From Patescibacteria group bacterium (GTDB lineage Bacteria; Patescibacteriota; Patescibacteriia; Buchananbacterales; UBA6539): a DNA stretch of 64,000 bases. Positions 8,922-61,937 of the stretch are shown here, one piece after another; within the stretch, counting starts at the first letter, position 1; each line of letters opens with the position of its first letter. Under the pieces are notes generated by a model. The model was not told the DNA's origin. It ran no database searches and was given only the letters and a program-made list of their open reading frames with translations. The stretch lies in contig JBAZMQ010000006.1 of assembly GCA_041649675.1 (NCBI GenBank), forward strand, positions 7,003-71,002. The letters are read 5' to 3'. A program made the position numbers and the translations under genes.

Positions 8922-9157
8922 TCTTTTTTTCAGCCATAAACAGCCACAAGCAACCTAGCTTCTAGCCATAATTTCACTATATTTAAACGGATTTTCAAGG
9001 TTCAATCCTAAAAAAATCCGACTTCTATTTTTAGCACTTTTTTTAAATTTTGTCAAGGTTAAAAAATATCCACCCTTAAATTAAAGATGGATATCGCTAT
9101 ATATAAATTTTAACTAAAATAATTACTATAAAATGCCCTAGCCTGCTCTTTTTTAAT

Positions 9158-23950: not shown

Positions 23951-24035
23951 ACTCCTATACTTTCATTGTAGTGCCACTGGCAAAAAAGGTCAAAAAAAAG
24001 AGACCAGTCAAATGCTTATAGCACTTAGCTGGTCA

Positions 24036-25133
24036 TTAGTTTACGGAAATGAACATATCCTCGCGCTGGAATTGCACCAAAGGCTTGCCCAGCATCTGGC
24101 CGCAGATCTTCAGGTAGATATTGGTAGTCTCCTCAACCGTCTCTTCGGGCCATTCCAGTTCCGAGACCCAATTGACGTGGGCTTCGTTCTCCGGATCGAG
24201 GTTGTCTATACCGATAATCTGCTCACCCTTGTGTTCACCCTTTTCGTAGAAAAACGGCGTAGGAACCTTGGCGCCGATAGCGCGGACATATTCTTTATCC
24301 GACGTTTCCAGGTTCGTACCGGCTGCCATTGCGGCATTATATTTCTCTTCCTCAATGAACCGCGATGAATCAGGGGTAAGAATCTCATCTGCCGCCACCA
24401 GCTCATTGTTGGCATTCAAACCAAACTCAAACTTGGTGTCAAAAAGGATGATTTTCTTAGATTTGGCATAGTCTGATCCCCGATCATACAACTTGAGCGA
24501 GAGATCCACTGCTTCCTGCGCCAACTGTTTTGGATCGCGGTTAATGCCATTTTCCCGCAGCCAGGCACCAAGAATCACCAGCATTTCGCCAAAAGTCAGA
24601 TGTTTATCGTGGCCGTCCTCGGATTTAGTCGTGGGGGTAGCAATTGCCGTAGATAATTTGCAACCCTTAGTGAGACCTTCAGGCAATAAAATGCCACAGA
24701 CTTCACGGGTCGCTTGGTAGCTTTTCCAACCGCTGCCACCCAAATAGCCGCGAACGACAAACTCGATGGGCAACATCCTGAGATTAAGAACAATCATGCC
24801 CCGCGATTGCAGGTCGGCGTTCCCACGCAATTCTTCGGGTAGATACTTGTCAATGGCCGCGCCATACGCCACGAGGTGGTTGGGGATATCCGCGAAGACA
24901 TTCAATAGCCAGTCGATGGTCATGGCGGTTAGGACCGAGCCCTTGAGCGAAATCAGCAGATTGAGGATGAAATCAAAAATGCTGATTCGGTCCGTGGCGA
25001 CGATAAGCCGCAAGTCGGGAAAACTAGGCAAGGCGTAGGAGTTGCGCACCTTGCCGACAGTCAATTCGTTGAGCTTTGTTGCCAGCAAGATGAATAGCGG
25101 CAACGCAAGCAGTCTGGGGTTAATCTTTTTCAT
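24036..25133 (-). CDS. purC: SAICAR synthetase (long form)
   Basis: FVVRGYLGGSGW and DTKFEFG motifs. GC-rich. Confidence 0.8.
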   Translation of the reverse strand: MKKINPRLLALPLFILLATKLNELTVGKVRNSYALPSFPDLRLIVATDRISIFDFILNLLISLKGSVLTAMTIDWLLNVFADIPNHLVAYGAAIDKYLPEELRGNADLQSRGMIVLNLRMLPIEFVVRGYLGGSGWKSYQATREVCGILLPEGLTKGCKLSTAIATPTTKSEDGHDKHLTFGEMLVILGAWLRENGINRDPKQLAQEAVDLSLKLYDRGSDYAKSKKIILFDTKFEFGLNANNELVAADEILTPDSSRFIEEEKYNAAMAAGTNLETSDKEYVRAIGAKVPTPFFYEKGEHKGEQIIGIDNLDPENEAHVNWVSELEWPEETVEETTNIYLKICGQMLGKPLVQFQREDMFISVN

Positions 25134-25175
25134 GGTTTCTTCTTTTCCTTCCTGTCTGTTGTAACTTGTTGTTTT

Positions 25176-25898
25176 CTATCCGAGAGCCGCAATGGCTTGG
25201 GTCCACGTTTGAAACGACGCTTCTTTGCCTTTGGCGTCGGCAATCCGTTGCCGTAAATCGTCAGGGATTTGGCCGTTAACCGCGAATTCGCAAGCGCGAG
25301 TAAAACCGTCGGGGCCAAAGTACTGTCCGGCTTCATCACCGCTAATAAGCAGATCCGCGCCGGGAAATTGCGTCATGGCCAGTAAGGCAGCCACATTTTT
25401 TCGCTGCTCATCATTCATTGCCGCCACAATCTCCTGGGGCGTCCGAGCGCTGTTGAGAACAACGTTGACTTCCGAGTCGGTTGTCGGCTCTTTTGGTTTC
25501 TCACACTTCAGAGCCACACCAATAACAATGATGTTTTTGGCGTGGAGTCCGTGGTACAAATAGCCTGCGGCTAAGCCGGGCAAAACTGCCAGCCAGCCAG
25601 CGGCCATGACCAAGACGTAATCGGTATCGAGATGGCTTTGCGCAATATTCGCCAGCCTGGTCAAAAACTCAAACAGGATGGCGAAGTTCCGATGGGCACT
25701 GATCGTGAAGTGCCCTGTGCCTCTGTGCTTGGGCTCAAGTACCAGCCGAACCGCCGGGTCCAGATCAATAATTTTCCCTGACTCGATCGCAGCCAAAGCT
25801 GCCGCCAGCGTTTTCCAACCGCCGCCTAACTGTTTGGCGTCGTTTGGCGAGCCAGCAATGGTTATAACTACCCTTTTTCTTGTTTCTTCAGTTGCCAC
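25176..25898 (-). CDS. purE: AIR carboxylase family (PurE-like) with C-terminal extension
   Basis: VVITIAGSPND (GSxSD-like) and AAGWLAVLPGLAAG...IIVIGVA (PurE core). GTG start. Confidence 0.65.
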   Translation of the reverse strand: MATEETRKRVVITIAGSPNDAKQLGGGWKTLAAALAAIESGKIIDLDPAVRLVLEPKHRGTGHFTISAHRNFAILFEFLTRLANIAQSHLDTDYVLVMAAGWLAVLPGLAAGYLYHGLHAKNIIVIGVALKCEKPKEPTTDSEVNVVLNSARTPQEIVAAMNDEQRKNVAALLAMTQFPGADLLISGDEAGQYFGPDGFTRACEFAVNGQIPDDLRQRIADAKGKEASFQTWTQAIAALG

Positions 25899-26126
25899 TG
25901 ATACTGTCCAACCTTTCTGGTTTTGTCCTTACGGACGCTTCGTTTTCTTTTCCATACCTCCCTTGTTTTGGGCGGTATCTTGCTTTGTCAATAAAATATA
26001 TTGTCAAAAAACAAAGTCTTTCCTCCTTGATCCGCCAAAGCCCGAGGGCAGAGGCAAACTCCTTGAAAAGACTAGTTTTGTACTCACAAATTAACAAAAA
26101 AATAATTAAATGTCAATGATCACCAA

Positions 26127-26214
26127 TTGTCATTCTGAAGAAGCGAAGCGGCTGAAAAATCCCAAAAGTTTAAGATTCTTCGCGCTAAAATATCGCTTAG
26201 AGCTCAGAATGACA
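26127..26214 (+). repeat. MITE-like structured repeat, copy 4
   Basis: TTGTCATTCTGAAG ... GAGCTCAGAATGACAG. An ATG lies 10 nt downstream (27-codon ORF). Confidence 0.75.
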
Positions 26215-26331
26215 GTAGGAGATATGCGCCTATTCGTTAATGTTATTTGGATAAAAAAAAGAAGCCAGTCAAACCCTCATGGATCTGACCGGCCGTTGAT
26301 TACTTAAACTTCCCTCCACCTCTTTCTTCGC

Positions 26332-28206
26332 CTAGTGCTTGGCAAAAAGCCGATCGGCGCTACTCAGGAAGGCGACAGAAAGCCCGGACTTGCTAAACAA
26401 AGCCTTGACGTTCTCGATCTCCTTGCCGTCAGCCGGCACCACGCCACCGATACAACCGGCGTCAATGAGCAATTCGGTTCCCTCTCGTCTATCCGATTGG
26501 GAAATCAGTGTGGCCATTTCGCCCAACAGCCTGATCGTCTCCAGTTGATTGCCAACCCGGTCAGCACTTCTCGCCTGAGCCAACAGCCACTCAATCTGGG
26601 CTAAGTCTACCGGCGGCTGTTCTCCGGTGGCATACGGGAAGAATGCATCCGAGGCAAAAACCGAACCTTGGGTGGTATGCCCAGCCCGTCTGGCCCGCTC
26701 AATGCAGAGCCTGACACAGGCAATCCGGTCTTGCTGGCCGCAGCCGAGACCAATTAACATCCGGTTCTTGGCCAAAGCCACGGTATTGCTGGAAGACCGA
26801 TAACAGGCCACCCAGGCAATCAGCAGATCTTCAAACCGGTCGTCGCTCAAAGGCACCCCGACCCAGGATTCAATCGTTTCCCTGGTCAGGATAAAACTTG
26901 GCGCCTTCTGTTTAAGGACATCACCGTTGCCAAGAAACTGCCACATCCATTCATTGGTTGGCATTTGCGGATCCAGTAATGCCAAATTGCTTAACAACCG
27001 GCGTTTCTCCCGCTTCCCTAGCTGCTCAACCGCGCCCGGGGAAAATGACGGAGCATAGATAATGTCCAGACCCCAGTTCTTCCGGCCAATCAACAGACTG
27101 AGTGGCGGGGACATCAATTCAACTCCAAGTTCATCGGTGATAGCGAAATTGGTAACTACTTCACCGCCCATTACCGCTACCTTGTCACCCGTCAAAGCTT
27201 TACGCAAAGCCGTTATGGGACTGGCCCAATCAACACCAATGCCGCAAACATTGCCGTGCTTTCCGGCAACAACAATGTACGGCACTTTACCGTAGACTCT
27301 TCGGTAAGCCTCGGCCAGAAAACGCAAAGCCCCGATCAGGCCGGCACCGTCTGCGATGCTGATGTAGCTAGGGTCGCCGGAAACGACTTGAAACTTGCTA
27401 GTTGCCAGCGGATCGTCGCTGTCGGTGGTAAACAGAAAAGCCGGGTCTTGGCGGTGATTTTCAGCATAGGCCAACTTTCGCGCCAACCGCATGAAGATGC
27501 CATCGAAATGACCGCCGCTGTGAAAACGGGCGGATTCCATCCGGTACCGAGACACGACGAAGTCAGCCTTGGCACAAAGGGCATTGCGGGTCTCTTCGGT
27601 AATCTCACCGTTATGCTCGCGCATCTGGTCAATCACCATCTGCCGGTCAGCCGGATCGCAAATCACAATTCGGCGACCCTTGGCTCCTTCGGAAACCATG
27701 GTCGGCCCGCCAATGTCAGTACCTTCGACAACCGACTCGGTTGTCGCGCCTTCCGCCTCGATTGCTCTCATTAGGGCATAGAAGTCGCAAACCACCATGT
27801 CGATGAAGGGGATACCAAACTTCGCCAGTTCCTTAAGATCAGAATCAATAGCCCGTGCGAGGAGTCCGGCTGATTTCGGCCGCGAAAGACTCACTACGCG
27901 ATGACCGAGCATCGGATTAGCATCAAGCAACTTTGCGACAGCTTTGGCTGAGAGCTTCCGACCACCCCTTTTGGTCTTAAAAGAAATACCGGCGCTAACA
28001 AATTCCTGAACCATGCTGCGCGTAATCATGTCAGCGATGTCTTGAACTTTGATACCGGCCGCCGCCAGATATTTGCACGTACCGGCCGAGCCAATAATGT
28101 GCCAGTTGCCCAATGCCTGCAACTGCCGAACAAAATCGACAATGTTAGGATTTTCCTTTTCAGTGACACTAATTAGCGCCACCCTCTGTCTCTGTTTTTC
28201 GGACAT
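26332..28206 (-). CDS. purH: bifunctional AICAR transformylase / IMP cyclohydrolase
   Basis: MGS domain ALISVTEK, DIGGPTMV, GCGQQDR and ASDAFFPYA motifs. GC-rich. Confidence 0.85.
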   Translation of the reverse strand: MSEKQRQRVALISVTEKENPNIVDFVRQLQALGNWHIIGSAGTCKYLAAAGIKVQDIADMITRSMVQEFVSAGISFKTKRGGRKLSAKAVAKLLDANPMLGHRVVSLSRPKSAGLLARAIDSDLKELAKFGIPFIDMVVCDFYALMRAIEAEGATTESVVEGTDIGGPTMVSEGAKGRRIVICDPADRQMVIDQMREHNGEITEETRNALCAKADFVVSRYRMESARFHSGGHFDGIFMRLARKLAYAENHRQDPAFLFTTDSDDPLATSKFQVVSGDPSYISIADGAGLIGALRFLAEAYRRVYGKVPYIVVAGKHGNVCGIGVDWASPITALRKALTGDKVAVMGGEVVTNFAITDELGVELMSPPLSLLIGRKNWGLDIIYAPSFSPGAVEQLGKREKRRLLSNLALLDPQMPTNEWMWQFLGNGDVLKQKAPSFILTRETIESWVGVPLSDDRFEDLLIAWVACYRSSSNTVALAKNRMLIGLGCGQQDRIACVRLCIERARRAGHTTQGSVFASDAFFPYATGEQPPVDLAQIEWLLAQARSADRVGNQLETIRLLGEMATLISQSDRREGTELLIDAGCIGGVVPADGKEIENVKALFSKSGLSVAFLSSADRLFAKH

Positions 28207-28234
28207 TGTTGTATCTTCCTCTCATTCTGTTTGA

Positions 28235-29821
28235 CTAAGCCGCGATAGGCTTGAGTCCGTTGGTTGTTTCCCGTCTTGCATCTTTAATCGCATCACCCAT
28301 GTAATGCGTTGGGTGCTTCAATAAATGAAGTTCCCGGCGCGTTAGGCCCTTCCAGGCGCGACGGAATTTCTGGTCGGTTTCATTAGCCTGCAGGTAAAGC
28401 TCAGCCGCGACACAAAGGTTTGGCGCTCCGGCCTTAACCCGGGCAATCAACTCCTTTTTGACAAAAGTATGAGCGCCGGCAAATCCCTCGCGCTGTAATG
28501 CATTATGAAGCAATTCCGCCAAAGACGCTGGCCCAAATGTCTGAACCCAGTGCAGACAGCGCTCTTCGTTGAAGGCTAGGACGCTCATCTGCCGCTTTAC
28601 GCTGTAAAGCTCCTGAGCAAAGTACTCCAAGGCTTCAATGAATGTCCTCATAACCGATGACCAACGCAAATCGCGTTGGAAATTGCTGCCGCGCGTCAAC
28701 CAAGGTCTTAAGGCGCAACTCAGTACGATTGTGTCTGCACCAATGGCATTTTCGGCCCGGATTGGATTAGCTTCTTTAGCCGCTCCGGCCGAAGAGGTGG
28801 AAGTGACATCCACCTCCTTTGAAGGAACAACCTCACCGAGTTCGGGCATATGCAAGATGCGAAGGTCTTCGCACAGACTCATCATCGGTCCGCCGATGGC
28901 AACAAGGTCACTATAAAAATGAACCGTATGATGAATCGGCGCAATCTGGGTGCTGCCTTTAGCGACTGGTAAGTCCAGAATGCTCATCAGTGTTCGTTCT
29001 GCTTTCTTGGGAATACCCACCGCTCGCTGGGATGCAGCCGTACCAACGAAACCGCAAAATTTGCCCGGCATAGCTAAAGCGGCCCGCTGCAGTTCAAGGG
29101 CACAATCGGTAAATTGCCGATGGGCACAAGCCAGGTAAAATCCGACGGTACCGGGTATGGCTGGCTGCAAGTGAGTGCGAAACATCTGGCGCGTCGTCAA
29201 ATATTCGTTGATCTTTGCCCGCCAGGTTTCATCAAGCGCCATCATCTTTGGCCACAGAACCAGACTGAACACGACTCGAAGCTGCAGGGCATATGCCGTT
29301 GAAATCGTATCATAGGAAGTTGCCGTATAGTGCAGCCACTTCCAAAGTCCTTTGGGCAAATACCGGCGCATCAAAGCCAACAACGCCAAGATGTCGTGAC
29401 CCATTCCCTTGGTCCCTTTCTTCTTGTCGCCGTATTCCAGCCGGTCTTGTTTGGTTGTAGTAACGTGCTTGAGCACATACAATAAACGTTCGGTGGTCAG
29501 AAGCCTGGCGTCTTTTTCGGGCATGACTCCGATGATGGCCAACGCCACCATCCAGAACCATTCCACGATGACCAACCAGGCCGCCCACTGGTCGTAACCA
29601 AGATACGGAACCAATTCAGGCTGCTGCTCTTCGTAGCGGTGATCCATATGCATCACTAAAACTCGCCGCGGATCCTCAGCCAGAACCGCCAGATAAGCAA
29701 TTGCGGCTGCCAACATCTCTCTTGCCTGTTTAATCGTCATACGCTTTGAACCTTTCTCCAATTTTTTTTCTATCAGCCATAGCCAAATGACCAATTCATC
29801 TAAACCTATATTTATTGTCAA
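28235..29821 (-). CDS. purB: fumarate-lyase superfamily, adenylosuccinate lyase-like
   Basis: SSAGAAKEANPIRAE resembles the GSSxMPxKxNP signature. About 100 aa N-terminal extension. GC-rich. Confidence 0.55.
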   Translation of the reverse strand: MTINIGLDELVIWLWLIEKKLEKGSKRMTIKQAREMLAAAIAYLAVLAEDPRRVLVMHMDHRYEEQQPELVPYLGYDQWAAWLVIVEWFWMVALAIIGVMPEKDARLLTTERLLYVLKHVTTTKQDRLEYGDKKKGTKGMGHDILALLALMRRYLPKGLWKWLHYTATSYDTISTAYALQLRVVFSLVLWPKMMALDETWRAKINEYLTTRQMFRTHLQPAIPGTVGFYLACAHRQFTDCALELQRAALAMPGKFCGFVGTAASQRAVGIPKKAERTLMSILDLPVAKGSTQIAPIHHTVHFYSDLVAIGGPMMSLCEDLRILHMPELGEVVPSKEVDVTSTSSAGAAKEANPIRAENAIGADTIVLSCALRPWLTRGSNFQRDLRWSSVMRTFIEALEYFAQELYSVKRQMSVLAFNEERCLHWVQTFGPASLAELLHNALQREGFAGAHTFVKKELIARVKAGAPNLCVAAELYLQANETDQKFRRAWKGLTRRELHLLKHPTHYMGDAIKDARRETTNGLKPIAA

Positions 29822-29904
29822 AAAACAAAGTCTTTCCCTCCCTGGAAAGACTGTTTTGTATTATTAATCTAACAAAATTGCCACTAAATGTCAAAATAAC
29901 CAAT

Positions 29905-30022
29905 TGTCATTCTGAGGGATCCACCCCCTGTCTACCAACAGACAGGCGGGGGTGGAGACCGAAGAATCTCAAACGTTTGGGATTCTTCGCACCCAGATAT
30001 TGCTTGGAGCTCAGAATGACAG
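29905..30022 (+). repeat. MITE-like structured repeat, copy 5
   Basis: TTGTCATTCTGAGG ... GAGCTCAGAATGACAG with inner palindrome CCACCCCCTGTC / GACAGGCGGGGGTGG and CGAAGAATC / GATTCTTCG. An ATG lies 10 nt downstream (15-codon ORF). Confidence 0.8.
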
Positions 30023-52290: not shown

Positions 52291-52421
52291 TACCGCAAAA
52301 ATCTAACTTTTACCAATATTTTTAAATTGACAAAAACTCCTTATTTAGCTAAGATTTTAAAGATCTGAAAAATCGTGCAACCTACAACTAAAACAAAGTT
52401 ATCACATTGGAGGAAGAGTCT

Positions 52422-53759
52422 ATGAAAGTAATTGTTGTAATTTTTGGAGCAAGTAGCGGATTGACTGTTGGCTATTTCGCCGGTGGCAAGTTCTGTGTGC
52501 TGGTTAAAGCCAAAATACCTTTCAGGCAAGATGCAAATGGCATCAAGTATTGGCCGTTAGCTTGGTTGAAAAAACAATTGGCAGCGGTGATGGAATATGC
52601 CCAGCCCGGCGACATTGTTGCCCCGGCTACTTGGGGCGCTGATTATGCCGCCTTTGCTGACGACAGTGCAGTCTTTGGCGGAATGAATCTTGGCTGGGCC
52701 AAGTTCTATGCTTCGGTGCCTGAGCATTACTTGAAACAAGTAACGGATATTATTCCCGCAGAAGAACTTTATTTGAGAACTGGCGGCGCCAACGTAGACT
52801 GGTTTCAGATGTACAGCCAGCTAAAATGCGACCTGGGCTTGCAGGCCAATGTGCTGTTGGCTAAAACCACCACCGGATTGATCCCGATGGCCGATGTCAT
52901 CACCTACCTTTTGACCGGCCAAAAAGGTCATGACCAAACGATGTTAAAAAGCTATGGCTTAACTGAGCCTGGCTGGCGGAAAATTTATCTCCAACTCTTT
53001 GGGTCAGAAATTGCAAACAAAATTGCGCCCTGGCCAGTGTTCCCTGAAAATCAACTGCTGACCAGACCAAACGGCGTAAGAGTCTGCCCAACAACTCACG
53101 ACTCAGTCCCTTCCCGGAGAGTTGGTTTTACCCTTTGCCCCTGGGACTTATGGACCGGAACTTGGGGCGGCGATGCCTTAGATCTAACCGCATTCCCTAA
53201 CGTGACTCCGTCAAAAAAATCATTTGGCGCCAACGTTGCCTTTGAAGGTATTGGTAATTCAGCCGCGGCAATCACCAACTTCGGCATGTTTGGAACCATC
53301 TGGGATGCCATCAAGACAGAAGGCGGTTGGCCAAGTTATGATGCAATAGCTCAATCAGCGCTGGAATTTTTAGGCGCTTCAGAGATTAGCATGATAATGG
53401 GAAATAATCCCACGCCAAACCTGACCCGTATGATGGAGCATCTGGAAAAAACATTTAGCGCCGGTAACTGGCCGCTAAAAGCCGCCTATTTCATCACAGT
53501 CGTTGCCCAAATCTGCAAGAATGGGTTGGAGGGCACTGCCAAACTTTTTGACCTGCCAAAGCCGGTTTCAGTTGCCGTCACTGGCGGCTGGACGGAAAAC
53601 GAGGCATTCCTTGCTCAGCTTGAAAATCTGGGCATAGCGCCGCTCATTCCACCTTTGGCTACCGAAGCAACCCATGCCGGAGTAGCGGCTCAAGCGTTGG
53701 TTATGGCTGATGAAGCCAACACTTTTGCCGAAGCGCTGGAATTGCTAGCCAGCATGTAA
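52422..53759 (+). CDS. FGGY-family carbohydrate kinase (rhamnulokinase-like)
   Basis: N-terminal GASSG ASKHA phosphate-1 motif and a C-terminal VTGGW...A actin-fold motif. GC-rich. RBS GGAGGAAG before the ATG at 52422. Confidence 0.6.
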   Translation: MKVIVVIFGASSGLTVGYFAGGKFCVLVKAKIPFRQDANGIKYWPLAWLKKQLAAVMEYAQPGDIVAPATWGADYAAFADDSAVFGGMNLGWAKFYASVPEHYLKQVTDIIPAEELYLRTGGANVDWFQMYSQLKCDLGLQANVLLAKTTTGLIPMADVITYLLTGQKGHDQTMLKSYGLTEPGWRKIYLQLFGSEIANKIAPWPVFPENQLLTRPNGVRVCPTTHDSVPSRRVGFTLCPWDLWTGTWGGDALDLTAFPNVTPSKKSFGANVAFEGIGNSAAAITNFGMFGTIWDAIKTEGGWPSYDAIAQSALEFLGASEISMIMGNNPTPNLTRMMEHLEKTFSAGNWPLKAAYFITVVAQICKNGLEGTAKLFDLPKPVSVAVTGGWTENEAFLAQLENLGIAPLIPPLATEATHAGVAAQALVMADEANTFAEALELLASM

Positions 53760-53828: not shown

Positions 53829-53888
53829 AAATTCTTGGCACCGCGCCAGGAAAGTTCATAAATTTGTTTCATAACCTGCATGCCGGGC
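53829..53888 (-). pseudogene. duplicated 3' fragment of the paralogous TrmB-family gene (encodes MKQIYELSWRGAKNLEIDKS)
   Basis: About 38 nt nearly identical to the 3' end of CDS 55392..56138. Confidence 0.5.
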
Positions 53889-54685
53889 TAGTGACCTTGG
53901 TTTAAATTATTGTTACTAATTTTTTTAGTTTTAGAGTAATTCCAAAAAAACTCAAACAGTGACTTTAACATCTCGGCGAACTCCTGACTTTCAATAATGA
54001 AACCAACATTTTCTTTACGGGATGAAATAAACGCCACCTTATTTCCATAAATCATAAAACCCATTGAGAAATTTATTTCTTTGGGAAGAAATCTAACTTC
54101 TCTTTTAAATTGAGGGCTGGATTCCATGTAGGGAAAATCCCTGAGATCAATTTTTTGTTTTATTGGCCAAAGCGCTCTAACGGAAACATTTTTTTCAACT
54201 CTTTTTTTCTGAGTGTATTCAAAAAATTCAGAAGTTAATATTTCTATCATTGGTTTTGGCGGCCAAAAAGTAACAAATTCACCTGCACTATAAACGATAA
54301 CATCTCGCATTATATTCTTAAGCGCGTCTTTGCCTTCATACATTTGAAATTTCGGACTGATGAATTTTGAAATAATATTTTTTTCCAACATTGGAATCAT
54401 AGCCTGATAATTCTTTTGGCTCTGAGTTATATTGTCAATCATTTGTTGAAAAATAAAATCGACCTTCTTGGGCGGTTGAGCTTGAAATATTTTGACGCTA
54501 AGATTGGATGATTGTGTGACCAAGCCCTTTTCCTGCAATCTTTTAAGAAAGCCATATAGTGACGGGCGGGGCTTTCCGATTTTTTTTGCCAGCTTACCAA
54601 CAGAAATTGGACCAAATTCTAAAAGAGCCAGATATGTTTCTGCTTCCTCTTTTCCAATCCCTAATGAATTAAATATATTTTCCAT
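53888..54685 (-). CDS. TrmB-family sugar-responsive transcriptional regulator, paralog 1
   Basis: N-terminal wHTH (ETYLALLEFGPISVGKLAKK...LKRLQEKGLV) and a C-terminal sensor domain. Confidence 0.7.
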   Translation of the reverse strand: MENIFNSLGIGKEEAETYLALLEFGPISVGKLAKKIGKPRPSLYGFLKRLQEKGLVTQSSNLSVKIFQAQPPKKVDFIFQQMIDNITQSQKNYQAMIPMLEKNIISKFISPKFQMYEGKDALKNIMRDVIVYSAGEFVTFWPPKPMIEILTSEFFEYTQKKRVEKNVSVRALWPIKQKIDLRDFPYMESSPQFKREVRFLPKEINFSMGFMIYGNKVAFISSRKENVGFIIESQEFAEMLKSLFEFFWNYSKTKKISNNNLNQGH

Positions 54686-54888
54686 TTGACTGACTGTTGT
54701 CGCGGTACCACAACACTATTGTTTATTAAATTATATCGTAATAATATAACTAAATTGGGGATTATGTCAATATTGTTGTTTAAATGCAACAGTAATTATA
54801 TTGACTATCTTCTTATGAACTTTATCACAAAAGAATAATGAATTTGCGGAGAAATGTCCTATTTATCTAAATGTTAAAAGGAGAAAAC

Positions 54889-55308
54889 ATGAATACGATA
54901 GAACCGAAACCGATCAGAACCCTAGTCTTAAAAGCCCATGAAATTTTTGTGGCTTCAGAGAGATTTATTGTCGGCGATAGTGAAGGACTTCGCATCTCTG
55001 AAATCACGGATTTATGGCGCCAGGTTTACATGAAGGTAATTGAGAGGAATATACCCGAAAAAACCGCGGAAGTATATCCAAATGGTTGCAAAAAGAAAGA
55101 TACGGGAATCAATTTAGCTCATGTGTATGATGTTCTTCTTGCTCAGGGTCATGGCCAAGACGGTTTACTAGAAATTGATGGCACCCGGCGGCCGTGTCAT
55201 GTCACCGGAGTTAACAATTTTATGCTCATTGTCAGCTGGGAAAATGATGGCTGGAAGCTGGATGCCAGGGCAGTAGTATCTGTTTTGGAAATTTTTATGT
55301 CTCGATAA
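54889..55308 (+). CDS. hypothetical protein (139 aa)
   Basis: RBS AAAAGGAG lies 5 nt before the ATG at 54889. No family recognised. Confidence 0.45.
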   Translation: MNTIEPKPIRTLVLKAHEIFVASERFIVGDSEGLRISEITDLWRQVYMKVIERNIPEKTAEVYPNGCKKKDTGINLAHVYDVLLAQGHGQDGLLEIDGTRRPCHVTGVNNFMLIVSWENDGWKLDARAVVSVLEIFMSR

Positions 55309-55355: not shown

Positions 55356-55394
55356 GGGACGAAATTGATTTCCATTGATTTCGCCCTTTTTTTA
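55356..55394 (+). terminator. terminator hairpin GGGACGAAA-loop-TTTCGCCC + T8
   Basis: Read from the sequence. Same stem family as 57147 and 59568. Confidence 0.65.
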
Positions 55395-56138
55395 TTTTAT
55401 TTCCATTGTTTTGGCGCCGCGCCAGGAAAGTTCATAAATTTGTTTCATGGCTTGGGCAATCGCTTTACTTTCAATAATGACAGACATACTTTCGGCATAA
55501 TTCATGAAGGCAATTTTATTATTATAGATATTAACTTCAATTTGGGAAGACAACATTTCTTTGGGCACAATAATGGTTTGTGAAAGTTCAGCTTCATCCT
55601 TTTTTTTATGGCGAGTTTCCCAAAACGAACCTTTTTCGGCAATACGCTTGGCGTGAATATTTAAAGCCACGCGTTTTCCCAAATAAACATAATCTTTATC
55701 CACATAAGGATTTGCAAAATAAGCATTGGTATTCCATTCCAAAATTTCCGGCGGCCTTTCAGCCAAGGTATCATCATAAACTTTTTGGATAGCATAGTCA
55801 CCTTCATAAAATAAAATTTTTGGTTTGATTTCACTCTTATTATAAACCGCTTCCAGCTGGGGCAGGGCTTTTTTTAGTTTGGCCTGGAGTTCGCTTAATA
55901 AATACAAAAGTTTATCCGGGCTTTCAGCCAAAAATCGGCTCTTGCCTTTGACTTTGGTTTTAGCCACCACGCCGCGACTAACCAAAGCGCTTAAAACAGA
56001 ATAAGTGGTAGTGCGCTGCAGTCCGGCTTTTTGGGCAATATTTTGAGCCGAGGCTAAACCCGATTCCAAGGCGGCTAAATAGACTTTAGATTCATTTTGA
56101 GAAAAGCCTAATTGGCTTAATAAACGGTCAAATTGCAT
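55392..56138 (-). CDS. TrmB-family transcriptional regulator, paralog 2
   Basis: N-terminal wHTH (ESKVYLAALESGLASAQNIAQKAG...LSALVSRGVV). Similar C-terminal domain. Confidence 0.7.
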   Translation of the reverse strand: MQFDRLLSQLGFSQNESKVYLAALESGLASAQNIAQKAGLQRTTTYSVLSALVSRGVVAKTKVKGKSRFLAESPDKLLYLLSELQAKLKKALPQLEAVYNKSEIKPKILFYEGDYAIQKVYDDTLAERPPEILEWNTNAYFANPYVDKDYVYLGKRVALNIHAKRIAEKGSFWETRHKKKDEAELSQTIIVPKEMLSSQIEVNIYNNKIAFMNYAESMSVIIESKAIAQAMKQIYELSWRGAKTMEIK

Positions 56139-56160
56139 AGTTTTATGAAGTCATTGTTTT

Positions 56161-56255
56161 GAATTCCCTCTCCGAAAACGGAGAGGGTTAGGGTGAGGTT
56201 ACGAAGTCAGTTACCTCATCCCTAGCCCTTCTCCCAAATGGGAGAAGGGAATTCT
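56161..56255. repeat. GC-rich palindrome cluster (CCCTCTCC family), locus C, bounded by GAATTCCC / GGGAATTC
   Basis: CCCTCTCC-GAAAAC-GGAGAGGG. GGGTGAGGT ... ACCTCATCCC. CCCTTCTCCC-AAAT-GGGAGAAGGG. Confidence 0.75.
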
Positions 56256-56376
56256 AAAAACATCTTTTTTAAAGAAGTGACGAAAAAACTTTAGTCATTT
56301 GTGATTAATTATTTAGCTTGTTTAATAGATTAATTGTAGCATATCTAAAGTTGTTCGTCAATACTGACGAAAATGA

Positions 56377-56405
56377 TTGACATTTTAGCGATTTTTTCTT
56401 ATAAT
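56377..56405 (+). promoter_or_regulatory. consensus sigma70 promoter TTGACA-17-TATAAT
   Basis: Perfect hexamers at 56377-56382 and 56400-56405. Followed by repeated TTGACGAAAA / TTTGACAGC words before the ATG at 56484. Confidence 0.6.
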
Positions 56406-56483
56406 AACCAGTCAAGATGTTCTTGACGAAAAAAACGTTCTTTGACAGCTCAAAAAGCTGTTAACTACTAGAAAGGAACTACG

Positions 56484-57113
56484 ATGAAAAAGATGCATAT
56501 GGCAGTGGAATGGGCGAGGAAATACAGTTGGTTTGCCATGGTATTTCTTTTCAAAAGAATTACTGTTGATGGTGTGGTAGTCTATTTGGGACTTGAACCG
56601 CCAACCTGGACTGACAGTCGAACTTTCCATGTCGGGCGGTTTAATCGGACACGAATTTTTTGTGGCAATGTGTCTCATTACATCAGTTGGCTGATTAGCT
56701 GGTTTCGTTTTAGACAAGAAATTTATCCGCGCTACCCCCGTCATCGAATTGAAATCAAGCTCCTCCAAGAAAAAAAAGCCGACGTTTCATTCCGCTTTTT
56801 TCGGGAAGATCATGCCCAAACATTGATCGTTTTGGATTCACAGTATACTTTGGTTTATTTACGGGGCGAAGGAAAAAAGTATATTGATCGCCCCTGGGCG
56901 ATCGCCAAAGCAAAAGATGAAAAAATGACCTGGGCGGCTGAACTGGACGCTTTTCAAGCCTGGCTGGAAAAAGAAGCCACCGAACTACTTGAAAAAGAAA
57001 AAAACGGCTCTCGGCTTGACTTTGGCTTTTATCAAGCTCAAGTCATCCACAAAAAAGCCGCACAACTTTTAAAAATACCGGCAGAAGTTCTGAATTTTCC
57101 AAAAGATTACTAA
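56484..57113 (+). CDS. hypothetical aromatic-rich protein (209 aa)
   Basis: RBS AAAGGA. No family recognised. First gene of the radical-SAM island. Confidence 0.5.
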   Translation: MKKMHMAVEWARKYSWFAMVFLFKRITVDGVVVYLGLEPPTWTDSRTFHVGRFNRTRIFCGNVSHYISWLISWFRFRQEIYPRYPRHRIEIKLLQEKKADVSFRFFREDHAQTLIVLDSQYTLVYLRGEGKKYIDRPWAIAKAKDEKMTWAAELDAFQAWLEKEATELLEKEKNGSRLDFGFYQAQVIHKKAAQLLKIPAEVLNFPKDY

Positions 57114-57146
57114 TCAGTCACGGCCACAAGGCAATGGCTCAATTCT

Positions 57147-57199
57147 GGGGCGAAATCAAAAGGCCAAACCTTGCGATTTCGCCCTCTTTTCCCCGGCTT
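57147..57199 (+). terminator. hairpin GGGGCGAAATC-loop-GATTTCGCCC + TCTTTTCCCCGGCTT
   Basis: The sequence ATTTCGCCCTCTTTTCCCCGGCTT is repeated at 59589-59612. Confidence 0.55.
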
Positions 57200-57295
57200 G
57201 GAGATGGTCTCAAAGTCGGAGAGAAAATAATGTTCTTTAAAATAAACAAACCAGAATAACTCAAGTTATTCTGGCAAGCCTCGGAAAGGAAAGTC

Positions 57296-58426
57296 ATGAA
57301 AACGATACGTGATTATATTATCGCTGATTCGGTATTAGGCACCGTTATTTCCGGCTCAGGCATAAAACAAAGCGAGTGCCAGGTGGCAAAAAAATTGAAA
57401 TATTACTCATCCGATTCAACCACGGCGAAAATCATCAAGCATAACCGGCAGTGGGCTGAAACTGGTGTCGGTTCGCCCCGATTCCAGTTTATTTATCTGA
57501 TGGTGCCATGCGGCTGCAATCAGAAATGCCGCGGCTGTTTCATGGGTCAAGACAAGAGTCGCCTGCCCCAAGAACTCGATGGGCCATTTTATGCCGACAA
57601 AGAACTCGCTGACATCTGCAGTTTTGCCAAAAAGCATGGAGCGCTGGCGGCTGTTCACGCCGGTGGCGGTGAATTATTCACCTGGTCTGGTGCACTTGAC
57701 TATATCAAATTCATCAAACGCCAAGGTTTATCAATGATGATTTTCACCAACGGCACGCTGATTGACCGGGCCATGATGCGCCGGCTAAACGAGTTGGAAG
57801 TGGCTCTGACGATATCAATGCGCGACCCGGCCGAAAAATGGCATAACGAAATCGTCGGGACCGGCGGTTTCAAAGCTAGTTTAAACGCCATTGAACTGGC
57901 CATGACTGAAGGTTTGCATCTGGATAACCGGTTATGCGTGGAAATGCCGGTGACGATTAATAACGAAGACCGGGTGATTAATGACCTGCTGCCAGTTTTG
58001 CGAGCGCTAGGCGTGGTGCCGATGATTGAGGAATATATCTTGACCAAAACTTCAGCCGAAGAAAACCAGTGCAGTCACTCTTTCACCCAGGCCCGTGAAT
58101 TTTTCCGCCGCTTGGCGCGAAAAGACGCCGAACTGGGAATAAACTGGTGGCCAGAATTCGGCCAGCGCATGATCGTCGAACCAAAATGCCAGCGGCCGTT
58201 GTTCTCATTTACGGTTTTTCCAAACGGCGAGGTGGTGGATTGTCCCACCAACATCGTTTCTTACGGCAATTTCCGTAAATTACCTCTGCCAGAGATTATT
58301 TATTCGGACCTTTTCCGAAAGACTCTGGCCAATTATCAACTGTGTCCCTGCTCAAAATTTTACACCGATGGCGACGCCGACATTCCAGTTGGATTGCCTG
58401 ACTATCTTAAGGAGAAATATGAATGA
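57296..58426 (+). CDS. radical SAM / SPASM-domain protein 1
   Basis: CNQKCRGC (CxxxCxxC) and a C-terminal Cys-rich SPASM-like region. GC-rich. Confidence 0.8.
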   Translation: MKTIRDYIIADSVLGTVISGSGIKQSECQVAKKLKYYSSDSTTAKIIKHNRQWAETGVGSPRFQFIYLMVPCGCNQKCRGCFMGQDKSRLPQELDGPFYADKELADICSFAKKHGALAAVHAGGGELFTWSGALDYIKFIKRQGLSMMIFTNGTLIDRAMMRRLNELEVALTISMRDPAEKWHNEIVGTGGFKASLNAIELAMTEGLHLDNRLCVEMPVTINNEDRVINDLLPVLRALGVVPMIEEYILTKTSAEENQCSHSFTQAREFFRRLARKDAELGINWWPEFGQRMIVEPKCQRPLFSFTVFPNGEVVDCPTNIVSYGNFRKLPLPEIIYSDLFRKTLANYQLCPCSKFYTDGDADIPVGLPDYLKEKYE

Positions 58427-59562
58427 GACCAAACATCGCGATTGAAAAAAATCTGGCCGATGAAAACGTTGTCCAATACTGGGGTTTTTTCACGCCAGAA
58501 GAAATTTCGGCGGCTGCTAAATCCGGCGAAATCTTGATGTTAGATATTGATTTTGGCCGCCAGTGTTCGCTGAGTTGTCCCGGCTGTTTTCGCCGCAAAA
58601 ATCTTGTTGACCTGGCTGGACAGACCGACCTGTCATACGAAAAGCTGCTTGCCGTTTTAGCCGAAGCGGCTGCTAATGGCCTAAAATCAGTTAAAATCTG
58701 CGGTGCCGGCGAACCATTCGAAAATCCGCGACTACTGGAGCTGGCCAAAGATTTAACATCTATGAATGTCGGCCTGGCGATTTTTACCAAAGGTCACGTT
58801 ATCGGCGATGATATCTGGACTAAAAAAATTTTCGGCCAGCAAGGCATTACCGACGGTCTGACTTTATGCCAAAAACTGTTTGAGTTAAAAACTTCAGTGA
58901 TGCTGTATTATCCCACCCTATCTAACAATGAACTGTTTTCCCGGCTGGTTGGTGATCGGACAAGTAGACACCCCCAGCGCGCCTGCCTGGCGGCTGAACG
59001 ATTGGCTTTAGCTGGATTTAATAAAACGCGACCGACACGTCTGATGTTGGTTCATACCCCTGTCACTAAAGATAGTGTTGGTGGGGCTCTCGCCGTCTAT
59101 AAATTCGCCCGCCAGAGAAATATTCTACCGCTGATTGCGTTTTATATGGTTAGCGGCACGCAGATTACCAAAGAGTTTCTTGAACGCTATGATCCGTCCG
59201 ATAAACAAAAACTGGAACTTTTTTGGCAGGTATATCGGTACAATCTGGATCACGGCATCCAGTCTCCAGAGCAGCTTGTTGCCGAAGGCATTTCCTGTAT
59301 GCCCGGTATTCACCCTTGCAACCAAATCGCCGTCGGGATGTATCTGACAGCCAACGGCAACGTCATTCGCTGTCCTGGCGACTGCGCTGGAGTACTGGGC
59401 AATGTCCAACAGGAAAGCCTTATAGCCATCTGGCAGCGTGTCCGGCAGTGGCCGTTTGCCGGACGGTCCAACTGCGGCTGTCCCTATAAAGACGGCCGGA
59501 CGGTGCCCCTTGAAATTTATAGACCAGATTTCTTTCATAAAATTCTGGATCCAAATAAATAA
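58423..59562 (+). CDS. radical SAM / SPASM-domain protein 2
   Basis: CSLSCPGC (CxxxCxxC) and a C-terminal Cys cluster (CPGDC...CGCPYKDGR). Overlaps the upstream gene by 4 nt. Confidence 0.8.
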   Translation: MRPNIAIEKNLADENVVQYWGFFTPEEISAAAKSGEILMLDIDFGRQCSLSCPGCFRRKNLVDLAGQTDLSYEKLLAVLAEAAANGLKSVKICGAGEPFENPRLLELAKDLTSMNVGLAIFTKGHVIGDDIWTKKIFGQQGITDGLTLCQKLFELKTSVMLYYPTLSNNELFSRLVGDRTSRHPQRACLAAERLALAGFNKTRPTRLMLVHTPVTKDSVGGALAVYKFARQRNILPLIAFYMVSGTQITKEFLERYDPSDKQKLELFWQVYRYNLDHGIQSPEQLVAEGISCMPGIHPCNQIAVGMYLTANGNVIRCPGDCAGVLGNVQQESLIAIWQRVRQWPFAGRSNCGCPYKDGRTVPLEIYRPDFFHKILDPNK

Positions 59563-59567
59563 GTTTT

Positions 59568-59612
59568 GGGCGAAACTGATTTAATTACATTTCGCCCTCT
59601 TTTCCCCGGCTT
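59568..59612 (+). terminator. hairpin GGGCGAAA-loop-TTTCGCCC + TCTTTTCCCCGGCTT
   Basis: Paralogous to 57147..57199. Confidence 0.55.
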
Positions 59613-59691
59613 TAAAAAAATGTTAAAGTTAAAGCCAGAGAAAAGAACTTCATAATATCTTTAAGCTACTAATTTAATCTAAAAAAAATTT

Positions 59692-60024
59692 ATGATCACC
59701 ATTCAAGATTTTCAAAAAGTTGACATTCGCGTGGGCAAAGTAATTGACGTTCAAGATTTTCCCCAAGCCAAAAAACCGGCTTACAAACTAACCATTGATT
59801 TTGGTCCAGAAATTGGCATTAAAAAATCAAGCGTCCAGTTGCCACAAAATTATTCCAAAGAAGAGCTGCTCAATAAGCAGGTTTTAGGCGTGGTTAATTT
59901 TGCACCCAGGCAAATCGGACCTTTCATTTCCGAGGTTTTAACTTTAGGCGTGCCCGACGGTCAAGGCAATTGTTTTCTAATCACGCCGGACAAACAGGTA
60001 CCTTTGGGCGGACAGCTTTACTAA
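59692..60024 (+). CDS. csaA: tRNA-binding protein CsaA/Trbp111 family (EMAP-like domain)
   Basis: IRVGKVIDVQDFPQAKKPAYKLTIDFG OB-fold tRNA-binding signature. Confidence 0.75.
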   Translation: MITIQDFQKVDIRVGKVIDVQDFPQAKKPAYKLTIDFGPEIGIKKSSVQLPQNYSKEELLNKQVLGVVNFAPRQIGPFISEVLTLGVPDGQGNCFLITPDKQVPLGGQLY

Positions 60025-61312: not shown

Positions 61313-61937
61313 GTTAAGCCAGCTTAACAGCCTTTAGGCTGTTATTCCTTAATATAATCTATAATTGGATAATTTGCAAAACAATCATCGAGCCAGTCTT
61401 GACCAAATTTTTTCAGATAATCTTTATAACTACAAAACTGATAACCTACTAGCTCGTCTAAATTCTTTATTAAATTATGTTTGATCGGATTTTGGTGAAT
61501 ATAGTTCAAATGGCAATAAAAACTTTTCTCATCACTAACAATCTTATCCCAATATTGATACCAAATTTTACGTCCTTTCCGGTTTTCAATTTTATTTAAT
61601 AAATATGAACTTTTACCATTAACTTGACTTATCAGTTTAGCTAAATCAATCCCATTTTCTGCTTTTAACAGTAGATGATAATGATTATTCAAAACAACCC
61701 AACCGGACAAACTAAATTCAAATTCTCTAATTTTTTCAAAAATAACTTTTAATAATATTTCTTTTTTTAATTCATCACGGAAATAAGCTAACCCACCATA
61801 AGTCCTACTGCTAATAAAATAATAAGCAGGTTCCGGCAAATACAGATGTAATGGCCGATGGATACTTCTGTCTTTTGGAAAATTCAACATAGCTTTTTTA
61901 TAACACGCTAAAGCGTGTTAGCCAGCTAAAGACTGGC
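61313..61937 (-). mobile_element. REP-associated tyrosine transposase (RAYT / IS200-like Y1) unit with flanking hairpins
   Basis: CDS 61342..61890 flanked by GTTAAGC-C-AGCTTAAC + ACAGCC-TTTA-GGCTGT on one side, and TAACACGC-TAAA-GCGTGTTA + GCCAG-CTAAAGA-CTGGC on the other. Confidence 0.65.
61342..61890 (-). CDS. REP-associated tyrosine transposase (IS200/IS605 Y1 HuH family)
   Basis: HuH motif NHYHLLLK. About 180 aa. A conserved Tyr region near the C-terminus (YIHQNP). Confidence 0.8.
   Translation of the reverse strand: MLNFPKDRSIHRPLHLYLPEPAYYFISSRTYGGLAYFRDELKKEILLKVIFEKIREFEFSLSGWVVLNNHYHLLLKAENGIDLAKLISQVNGKSSYLLNKIENRKGRKIWYQYWDKIVSDEKSFYCHLNYIHQNPIKHNLIKNLDELVGYQFCSYKDYLKKFGQDWLDDCFANYPIIDYIKE

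Follow-up and report, generated by a model that had tools for sequence, protein, structure and literature searches.

A horizontally mobile, regulator-linked pair of paralogous radical-SAM enzymes with predicted single auxiliary clusters in a Patescibacteria contig

Radical S-adenosylmethionine (SAM) enzymes with a full SPASM domain are defined by a seven-cysteine motif (CX9-15GX4C ... CX2CX5CX3C ... C) and two auxiliary [4Fe-4S] clusters, and those of the twitch or partial-SPASM type by a truncated domain with a β-hairpin of the form CX9-15GX4C and one auxiliary cluster. Among the former are the anaerobic sulfatase-maturating enzymes (anSME/AtsB-type; Clostridium perfringens anSME, PDB 4K36-4K39), which have at least seven cysteines and two auxiliary clusters and act alone on sulfatases. 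Twitch-domain enzymes include SkfB (PDB 6EFN; compare BtrN and MoaA), which combines an N-terminal recognition element (RRE) for ribosomally synthesised, post-translationally modified peptides (RiPPs) with a precursor, SkfA, and a [2Fe-2S] auxiliary cluster. BlsE (cytosylglucuronate decarboxylase, PDB 7VOB) and DesII, in turn, are single enzymes of antibiotic sugar pathways. Two radical-SAM enzymes of ~350-390 aa occur beside Lrp/AsnC-fold proteins in the AhbC/AhbD and NirJ systems, and two adjacent paralogous genes of the radical-SAM/SPASM type are found in the ScmE/ScmF (SynChlorMet cassette) and HxsB/HxsC systems, which have defined precursor peptides. Here, we describe a locus in a 64,000-nt stretch of a contig belonging to the candidate phyla radiation (CPR; Patescibacteria), hereafter the window, whose positions are used throughout. 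It comprises two coupled radical-SAM genes, rSAM-A and rSAM-B, next to a divergent TrmB-family gene. We conclude with high confidence that these genes belong to a conserved module that is coupled to a regulator, moves horizontally between ultra-small bacteria, ultra-small archaea and free-living anaerobes, and encodes two paralogous enzymes, each predicted from its cysteine pattern to bind a single auxiliary cluster, and, with the same confidence, that this module has no characterised member.

The locus differs from the described systems in several respects. Compared with anSME, its enzymes (17-18% identity) have four conserved C-terminal cysteines and form two coupled paralogues with no sulfatase gene nearby. 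Compared with SkfB (16% identity), neither an RRE nor a precursor was found, and compared with BlsE and DesII (16% identity), the loci contain no sugar-nucleotide genes. The layout of two adjacent paralogues recalls ScmE/ScmF and HxsB/HxsC, but the ScmF and ScmE models gave 38.3 and 26 bits and did not approach their 400-bit cut-offs, and a conserved precursor is missing. The small OB-fold protein CsaA, encoded with the enzyme in some loci, offers a possible analogy to PqqE plus PqqD; however, CsaA is unrelated to PqqD/RRE, and the PqqE model scored 20.9 bits against a cut-off of 381.

The sequence-only reading of this stretch had proposed tandem, translationally coupled radical-SAM/SPASM enzymes. 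The two genes indeed share an ATGA overlap (58423-58426), and since they also overlap in related loci, they represent a genuine conserved, translationally coupled pair. The CxxxCxxC motif is present in both products (C74/C78/C81 in A, C48/C52/C55 in B), which belong to the radical-SAM superfamily. A exceeds the cut-off of the Pfam Radical_SAM model (PF04055; 49.8 versus 29.5 bits); B falls below it (23.5 bits) but has the invariant C48/C52/C55 triad and a GAGEP motif, most B homologues carry PF04055, and the radical-SAM fold is confident in the AlphaFold (AF2) models of both proteins (mean predicted local distance difference test scores of 93.6 for A and 94.8 for B). As distant paralogues, A and B share 20% identity over their full length. 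Pfam gave no match for the N-terminal 65 aa of A.

The C-terminal regions, by contrast, do not bear out the predicted full SPASM domains. C298/C316/C350/C352 are invariant in the A family, together with C74/C78/C81 (alignment of 42 sequences), and the B family conserves C299/C317/C353 along with C48/C52/C55, with C351 present in the consensus (alignment of 50 sequences). Each protein thus has only four conserved C-terminal cysteines, arranged as an invariant C-X12-G-X4-C (C-X17-C) plus a C-X-C. The Pfam SPASM model (PF13186; cut-off 21.5 bits) gave borderline scores of 21.0 (A, below) and 21.7 (B, just above), and TIGR04085 (SPASM) was not among the NCBIfam matches of either protein. Four cysteines are enough for one auxiliary [4Fe-4S] cluster, as in twitch/partial-SPASM enzymes, and A and B probably each carry one such twitch-like cluster; the nearest structures include SkfB, MoaA and BlsE, and the number and type of the clusters are predicted from sequence.

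Classification with curated models placed neither enzyme in a known family. None of the NCBIfam equivalogs was reached by A or B, the best score being 51 bits for StsB (cut-off 625). The scores for MftC (23.1 versus 265 bits), CcpM (20.1 versus 500), PapB (18.1 versus 340), AhbC (34.1 versus 650), AhbD (33.7 versus 500), NirJ (29.5 versus 515), NirJ1 (36.8 versus 650) and viperin_w_prok (37.3 versus 180), like those for PqqE and anSME-like models, were far below threshold, and a QhpD model was absent from the NCBIfam matches of the pair. Sequence searches of the PDB with the single A and B proteins returned nothing, and profile searches only weak matches to the radical-SAM core (at most 29 bits), PqqE being the sole PDB sequence match of the B profile (E = 6e-4). 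The closest structures to the pair (SkfB, SuiB, anSME, ChlB) form a flat plateau of SPASM/twitch enzymes; for the B model, the best Foldseek matches were SuiB, DesII and GDGT-MAS, with TM-scores of at most 0.56. As these neighbours include both peptide-acting and small-molecule-acting enzymes, they do not indicate a substrate class. In an exhaustive hidden Markov model search of 1.84e9 representative sequences, ~12 family clusters were followed by a fall from 179 to 147 bits, and the second-tier relatives beyond this drop had generic annotations only, with no informative name. The B homologues (n = 370) include many from DPANN archaea, and a full-text literature search retrieved no paper on the A+B pair.

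The weak matches to heme-pathway models raise the question of whether A and B could be AhbC/AhbD-like enzymes of a divergent tetrapyrrole pathway, with the Lrp/AsnC protein found in related loci (see below) acting as a siroheme-decarboxylase-like component. The gene content resembles AhbA/B plus AhbC plus AhbD, A weakly matches the NirJ1, AhbC and AhbD models (E ~1e-8 to 1e-9), and the tandem Lrp/AsnC protein weakly matches those of AhbA and AhbB (46 and 33 bits). However, the AhbC/AhbD and NirJ scores amount to 5-10% of the cut-offs, AhbA remains at 46 of 140 bits, and the unrelated radical-SAM models StsB, ScmF and viperin score equally high or higher. In addition, the Lrp/AsnC protein matches true regulators far better (83 bits, E = 1e-24, two canonical helix-turn-helix domains), is divergently transcribed and is replaced by an unrelated TrmB protein in bacteria, and no other tetrapyrrole gene was present in the loci examined. 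We therefore disfavour this explanation and consider it highly improbable.

Searches of species-representative genomes and metagenome contigs, complemented by exact look-ups, yielded ~60 related loci (given L-codes below) that contain the pair or B alone; their open reading frames (ORFs) were called mechanically and then clustered by BLAST. The A family was present in at least 11 of 185,579 species-representative genomes, all 11 of them metagenome-assembled genomes (MAGs). The loci fall into three settings. In CPR bacteria (type I), a divergent TrmB-family gene accompanies the enzymes in ~13 loci, some of which also contain a B12-binding radical-SAM gene. In archaea (type II), its position is taken in ~17 loci by a divergent gene for a 320-aa tandem Lrp/AsnC protein; the hosts are mostly DPANN lineages (Pacearchaeota, Diapherotrites, Micrarchaeota), along with a Thermoproteota MAG, and further B-family homologues carry the names Woesearchaeota and Ainarchaeum. 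In free-living anaerobes (type III; Thermodesulfovibrionales, Bacteroidales, Deltaproteobacteria), the pair is embedded in ~11 loci among the genes for the ATPase, binding protein and permease of a Liv-type ABC importer, whose binding protein has only amino-acid binders as its nearest solved relatives (E = 1e-41). The module was thus always accompanied by a divergent regulator of the ligand type or located within the operon of an amino-acid-type importer. The minimal loci, with a regulator-to-A gap of 95-160 bp, consist of the regulator, A and B only, so that the substrate must already exist in the recipient cell. One distant relative adjoins a pyrroline-5-carboxylate reductase gene, which provides a weak hint only.

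Two side observations concern this wider family. First, rSAM-B has a 26.5% identical relative on plasmid AZO_p3 of Azospirillum lipoferum 4B (L102, 282012-285165), in an apparent operon of DMT-transporter, radical-SAM and agmatinase-family genes beside a MurR/RpiR regulator; no other relative came from a cultured organism, and this one could serve as a tractable model for the chemistry of the wider clade. Second, a protein family that we call C5 is always encoded beside the Liv-type binding protein of type III loci, in L012 (13360-15653), L011, L013, L014, L070, L075 and L076. Its members share invariant YCxxC, TVQTP, YxRLV and SNLDIH motifs, begin with a transmembrane segment or a TIR/nucleoside-deoxyribosyltransferase-like, sometimes SLATT-like, region and had no match in Pfam or the PDB. 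In L012, a DarT/Macro pair is inserted within the operon, with an AIPR gene ahead.

Comparison with L016, a CPR locus that has the same regulatory frame, indicates that the enzymes are exchanged as a cassette. Between the two loci, the divergent regulator TrmB2 (77% aa and 76% nt identity), the promoter/operator block (82% nt), the two-hairpin element upstream of rSAM-A (77% nt) and CsaA (88% aa, 82% nt) are well conserved, whereas rSAM-A and rSAM-B are only 44% and 46% identical at the amino-acid level. The enzymes of the window even resemble those of L016 less than those of loci whose TrmB proteins are only ~35% identical. With the frame 76-88% identical and the enzymes 44-46% identical, this pattern indicates that the enzyme cassette was replaced while regulator, promoter, hairpin element and CsaA around it were conserved, and it makes the locus a clear example of such replacement in its lineage. 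In a neighbour-joining tree of A, constructed without support values, the window protein clusters with further CPR proteins adjacent to the type III clade, and the L016 and L085 proteins with an archaeal clade, such that CPR, archaeal and free-living clades are interleaved.

The base composition fits this picture, with reservations. The raised GC content noted initially was confirmed for the pair (0.486, compared with 0.387 in the flanks and 0.411 in the window). Relative to the host locus, the pair deviates by +10 points here, by +12 in Magasanikbacteria and by -12 to -14 in Bacteroidales. However, other GC-rich patches of up to 0.54 exist in the window, and with such a mosaic composition of the contig, an elevated GC content is by itself a weak indication of transfer. 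An assembly chimera as the source of the GC jump was ruled out, since two further independent assemblies show the identical gene order and the arrangement is therefore not an assembly artefact. With no curated family reached and a non-native GC content, the enzymes do not classify as housekeeping cofactor-biosynthesis enzymes of native composition. The GC-rich patches are located at 6000-9000 and 24000-30000 (0.47-0.54, compared with a mean of 0.41).

The module appears to be controlled from a conserved promoter/operator region. The perfect TTGACA-17-TATAAT promoter described previously was verified (12/12 positions), with no other perfect match across the 5.5 kb scanned. It is homologous to a promoter that directly drives rSAM-A in L057. 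An alignment of the intergenic regions of the window, L055 and L057 revealed a palindrome, AATGACGAA-N-TTTAGTCATT, ~100 nt upstream of the promoter. A second one (TTCGTCA-ATAN-TGACGAA across the three loci) ends 5 nt before the -35 hexamer, and in the window a third closely follows the -10 hexamer. The operator-like palindromes and the promoter are conserved in the window, L055, L057 and L016, and the block at 56271-56430 shares 82% nt identity with L016/L087. The conserved half-sites TGAC/GTCA account for the repeated "TTGACGAAAA words" reported earlier: the window contains one exact copy of TTGACGAAAA, and with one mismatch allowed, 4 of the 15 window matches lie within 56277-56432. Across the window this number does not exceed chance; the local cluster, however, is conserved in orthologous loci. 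TrmB2 has orthologues of 75-83% identity at the same position in L055, L016 and L085. Both TrmB-family genes of the window exceed the Pfam TrmB cut-off (PF01978; 53.1 and 48.1 bits versus 25.6). The full-length TrmB/TrmBL1 equivalogs are missed (26 versus 600 bits), which means that sugar sensing is not implied. The palindromes are probably the operators of the divergent TrmB-family protein, making TrmB2 a probable repressor of the promoter of the pair.

Between the TrmB2 start and the operator region, we also observed a nearly perfect nested palindrome of ~100 nt (56160-56258; GAATTCCCTCTCC...GGGAGAAGGGAATTC), which folds into a three-hairpin junction (minimum free energy (MFE) -60.5 kcal/mol, z = -9.0). 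It has no second copy in the window and is absent from the intergenic regions of L055, L057 and L016; it could be an insertion resembling a miniature inverted-repeat transposable element or a repetitive extragenic palindromic (REP) sequence.

A second conserved feature of the regulatory frame is the two-hairpin element. The 24-mer ATTTCGCCCTCTTTTCCCCGGCTT occurs exactly twice in the window (57176 and 59589; 0 expected), each time inside a two-hairpin structure (z = -4.6 and -4.4). The shared hairpin sequence noted before is thus an exact 24-nt repeat, but it brackets the radical-SAM pair only, as copy 1 lies between an upstream 209-aa ORF and rSAM-A. We rejected the idea that the 24-mer is a genome-wide repeat, since apart from its two window copies it was found in orthologous loci only. 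Located 74-117 nt upstream of rSAM-A, the element is conserved in the window, L055, L016, L085 and L087 and consists of a stem, CUCUUUUCCCCGG and a second stem, with some compensatory changes between loci in the first stem. Copy 2, downstream of rSAM-B, is a diverged paralogue of copy 1, and the terminator of rSAM-B in L055 shares the GGGCG...CGCCCTCTTTT form with it. In copy 1, the first hairpin is followed by the terminator-like CUCUUUUCC and then by the second hairpin. The hairpins are strong (z ~ -4.5), yet the CUCUUUUCC tail contains only four U residues and neither hairpin was listed by a terminator consensus scan. A promoter-like site between copy 1 and rSAM-A was not detected in the scan; given this result and the short U-tract, we infer partial read-through from the consensus promoter into the enzyme genes.

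Taken together, these features could be accommodated by a ligand-induced two-enzyme pathway that acts on an amino-acid-like small molecule. We put this reading forward tentatively, as the best of those considered, and hold it to be plausible rather than probable; it is based on the importer operons of type III, the ligand-type regulators and the contexts of distant relatives. In such a pathway, the TrmB-family protein would repress the consensus promoter through the flanking and overlapping TGAC/GTCA palindromes, and sensing of a small ligand would release the promoter. The transcript would then read through the two-hairpin element, a weak terminator-like structure, and continue into rSAM-A and rSAM-B, whose products might work jointly on the amino-acid-like molecule, either by forming a heterodimer or by catalysing two radical steps in succession. 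Free-living hosts would import the substrate through the Liv-type transporter, and CPR and DPANN cells would take it from their surroundings or host.

The 209-aa ORF upstream of copy 1, previously considered as a W/F/Y-rich component or substrate of the system, does not belong to the module. It matched only itself among 5.8 billion proteins and nothing in the Pfam, NCBIfam, PADLOC and PHROG profile libraries. Its aromatic richness was confirmed (15.8% W+F+Y, compared with a mean of 8.5% and a standard deviation of 2.6), the highest among window ORFs of at least 200 aa. However, the aromatic-rich N-terminal half (56484-56768) lacks a coding signal: a codon-usage log-odds score trained on the long ORFs of the window, by which accepted window genes reach 0.22-0.45, was ~0 for this half in all six frames. 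The C-terminal half (56769-57113) scored a gene-like 0.46, with no canonical start codon ahead of it. At least half of the ORF is thus probably non-coding. We also considered an RNA gene hidden in the aromatic-rich half (a GGTTCAAGTCC-like string) and rejected it, as ARAGORN detected neither a tRNA nor a tmRNA gene across the window; Rfam gave nothing in the region of the ORF at E <= 1 and nothing window-wide at gathering score. The slot occupied by the ORF, moreover, is variable. In L055 and L057, the two closest loci (enzymes 69-73% identical), it differs as well: L055 has an unrelated 90-aa membrane ORF with two transmembrane segments, and in L057 the slot is empty, the homologous promoter and a Shine-Dalgarno sequence directly preceding rSAM-A. 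L016 has a B12-radical-SAM gene and small ORFs in its place, and L017, like L055, small membrane ORFs. Since it matches only itself and the slot differs in the closest loci, the 209-aa ORF is not a conserved component; without homologues, a family match or similarity to the L055 slot ORF, it was rejected in the role of substrate or partner, and we regard it with high confidence as a lineage-specific orphan outside the module.

The variable slot is also where the precursor would have to be sought if A and B modified a ribosomal peptide or protein, by radical cross-links or otherwise, unless the substrate is encoded elsewhere. A RiPP-like maturation system of this kind, in which the leaky hairpin would set a high precursor-to-enzyme ratio and CsaA would act as a peptide-presenting chaperone, is possible, yet on balance we think it unlikely. 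It would agree with the closest structures (SkfB, SuiB, anSME, ChlB) and with the allelic cassette replacement and atypical GC content, which are typical of bacteriocin-type loci; the small membrane ORFs in the L055 and L017 slots could be immunity-like, and CsaA of Bacillus subtilis has been described as a peptide-binding export chaperone. Moreover, the beta-type loci L016, L085 and L087 encode a basic 22-aa ORF, MRSKRTKKVSAFRGRPRCQQPG, that overlaps the stop codon of the B12-radical-SAM gene (TGATG) and is 98.6% conserved at the nucleotide level between L016 and L085, compared with 85% for the operon; ~5% of 66-nt windows are equally conserved. This ORF, a possible peptide substrate or leader of the beta-type cassette, and a second small ORF, which lie between the B12-radical-SAM gene and the hairpin element (9665-9733 and 9767-9868 in L016), both end in CQQPG, but the second of them is poorly conserved, with mostly amino-acid-altering changes. 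As the sequence-only reading had stated, no short precursor ORF is obvious: a short-ORF search of the window found none that is conserved, and a 41-aa ORF across the hairpin was rejected as a precursor because of an in-frame stop in L055. The slot ORFs of the window, L055 and L016 are unrelated even though the enzymes of the first two are 71-72% identical, and L057 and most archaeal loci leave no room for a precursor. Pfam and NCBIfam searches of A, B and the neighbours examined revealed no RRE/PqqD domain, peptidase or exporter, the sole transporter being an importer. The proposed link to peptide modification is thereby weakened, with one lineage and its conserved 22-aa ORF speaking in its favour.

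A different substrate is suggested by CsaA, an OB-fold protein with a domain of ~110 aa that exceeds the Pfam tRNA_bind cut-off (PF01588; 52.1 versus 27 bits). If the B-type enzyme, with or without A, modified tRNA or another housekeeping RNA or protein, a Trbp111/CsaA-like protein could deliver the tRNA, and an imported amino acid would possibly be a co-substrate. The tRNA_bind gene lies directly downstream of the pair in the window and 21 nt after rSAM-B in L016/L087, where it is 88% identical to that of the window. In a Thermoproteota MAG (L099, 8001-9490), the stop codon of a B-like gene without A overlaps the start of a CsaA-like gene that is 57% identical to window CsaA, with a tandem Lrp/AsnC regulator divergent upstream. 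As CsaA follows the enzymes in a CPR lineage and in this MAG, two independent associations, chance is an unlikely explanation. In one CPR locus, a gene for a class Ib aminoacyl-tRNA synthetase comes after a B-like gene, and transfer of the module as regulator and enzymes only would require a universal substrate. However, the association concerns ~4 of the 60 loci, and CsaA is absent from most, including L055, L010 and most archaeal and type III loci. In the window, a terminator-like element separates the pair from CsaA, which in the CPR lineage belongs to the conserved backbone and not to the swapped cassette. Furthermore, domain scans of the pair detected no TRAM, PUA or THUMP RNA-binding domain, and dedicated ligand-type regulators and ABC importer operons would be unusual for tRNA modification genes. 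We therefore judge a role in tRNA modification to be quite improbable.

The type III loci, finally, contain features reminiscent of conflict systems, in which the pair might make a modified nucleotide or toxic metabolite in the manner of viperin, as part of anti-phage or inter-microbial defence islands. A matches the PADLOC pVip model (39.9 bits, E = 8e-11), a Thermodesulfovibrionales locus is flanked by an AIPR gene and DarT/Macro, a Bacteroidales locus resides in DNA resembling mobile elements, C5 sometimes has the TIR/nucleoside-deoxyribosyltransferase-like or SLATT-like N-terminus, and the cassettes are diverse and horizontally transferred. The pVip match, however, covers only the generic radical-SAM core (residues 73-201), and the NCBIfam viperin score is low (37 versus 180). 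There was no relative in 50,697 phage genomes and only one distant relative in a plasmid collection, CPR and archaeal loci lie among housekeeping genes, and a Liv-type importer is not known as a defence component. A function in conflict thus appears very improbable.

Returning to the ligand-induced pathway for an amino-acid-like molecule, several of these observations count against it. Since regulators of the Lrp/AsnC and TrmB types are very widespread, their presence is only a weak pointer to an amino-acid ligand, and the C-terminal domain of the CPR TrmB proteins matched no sugar-binding model. All family members come from MAGs of uncultured organisms. Copy 1 of the hairpin element could terminate transcription fully, in which case the pair would need a promoter of its own, and none was found in the scan. 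The arrangement, with a promoter and a small gene ahead of a leaky hairpin and the enzymes, recalls that of RiPP operons, most of the top structural neighbours modify peptides, and the beta-type relatives have the well-conserved 22-aa ORF coupled to the B12-radical-SAM gene. The CsaA/tRNA_bind gene, which comes after the enzymes in two lineages independently, suggests instead a tRNA or an unfolded peptide as the substrate, and the TIR/SLATT-like N-termini of C5, together with the AIPR and DarTG neighbours, could signify a conflict system rather than catabolism.

It is also conceivable, if improbable, that the pair forms the core of a hitherto unrecognised, self-regulated radical-SAM cassette exchanged across domains, among episymbiotic CPR and DPANN organisms and anaerobic free-living bacteria. 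Such a cassette would make or transform a new amino-acid- or peptide-derived molecule (by B12-dependent methylation in some alleles) for symbiont-host or inter-microbial interaction, and from one allele to the next its slot would encode a different partner, for instance a peptide, an immunity protein or a membrane protein.

The genomes of CPR bacteria and DPANN archaea are tiny and encode very few biosynthetic enzymes. That two costly iron-sulfur radical enzymes are kept and repeatedly exchanged with a dedicated regulator implies a function relevant to the lifestyle of these cells. The module is small (a regulator and one to three genes), found only in uncultured anaerobes and, given its motifs, confident structure models and conserved promoter/operator architecture, sufficiently well defined to be directly testable in vitro. 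Identification of its substrate would extend the chemistry of the SPASM/twitch radical-SAM group by a new reaction and could reveal a metabolite or modification common to unrelated episymbionts.

Table 1. Coordinates of the radical-SAM module and its surroundings in the window.
Feature	Position	Strand	Basis or remark
TrmB-family gene (first)	53888-54685	-	ORF table; Pfam TrmB
ORF of no known family	54871-55308	+	145 aa from first start; 139 aa as called elsewhere
TrmB2, TrmB-family winged-helix regulator, divergent from operon	55392-56138	-	Pfam TrmB 53.1 bits, cut-off 25.6
Operator-like palindrome 1, TGAC-N12-GTCA (AGTGACGAAAAAACTTTAGTCATT)	56276-56299	.	Near-invariant in the window, L055 and L057
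Operator-like palindrome 2, TTCGTCA-ATAC-TGACGAA	56354-56371	.	Arms invariant in the window, L055 and L057
Sigma-70-type promoter TTGACA-17-TATAAT	56377-56405	+	12/12 match
Operator-like palindrome 3, GTCAAGA-TG-TTCTTGAC, plus TGACGAA half-site	56411-56430	.	Inverted repeat; partly kept in L055
209-aa orphan ORF, variable slot	56484-57113	+	Self-match only
Two-hairpin element copy 1	57147-57225	+	24-mer at 57176-57199; MFE -40.5 kcal/mol, z = -4.6
rSAM-A, with 65-aa N-terminal extension and four-Cys C-terminal motif for a predicted auxiliary cluster	57296-58426	+	
rSAM-B, distant paralogue of A, same cluster motifs	58423-59562	+	Start overlaps stop of A
Two-hairpin element copy 2, ends the radical-SAM pair	59568-59646	+	24-mer at 59589-59612; MFE -27.5 kcal/mol, z = -4.4
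CsaA/Trbp111-like tRNA_bind protein, conserved flank, possible accessory component	59692-60024	+	Pfam tRNA_bind

The neighbours named in the sequence-only reading, namely two TrmB-family genes, an ORF of 139 (145) aa and a CsaA/tRNA_bind gene, are all present (Table 1). In addition, we observed a 450-aa ORF at 52407-53759 (+) with a GC content of 0.50 and a good coding score. Neither this ORF nor the 145-aa ORF had a match in Pfam, NCBIfam, PADLOC or PHROGs, and the first TrmB paralogue may regulate both of them. At 61342-61890 (-), 1.7 kb downstream of the operon, lies a gene for an IS200-like Y1 transposase (Pfam Y1_Tnp, 37 bits), which may represent a REP-associated (RAYT-like) transposase connected with the nearby hairpin repeats.

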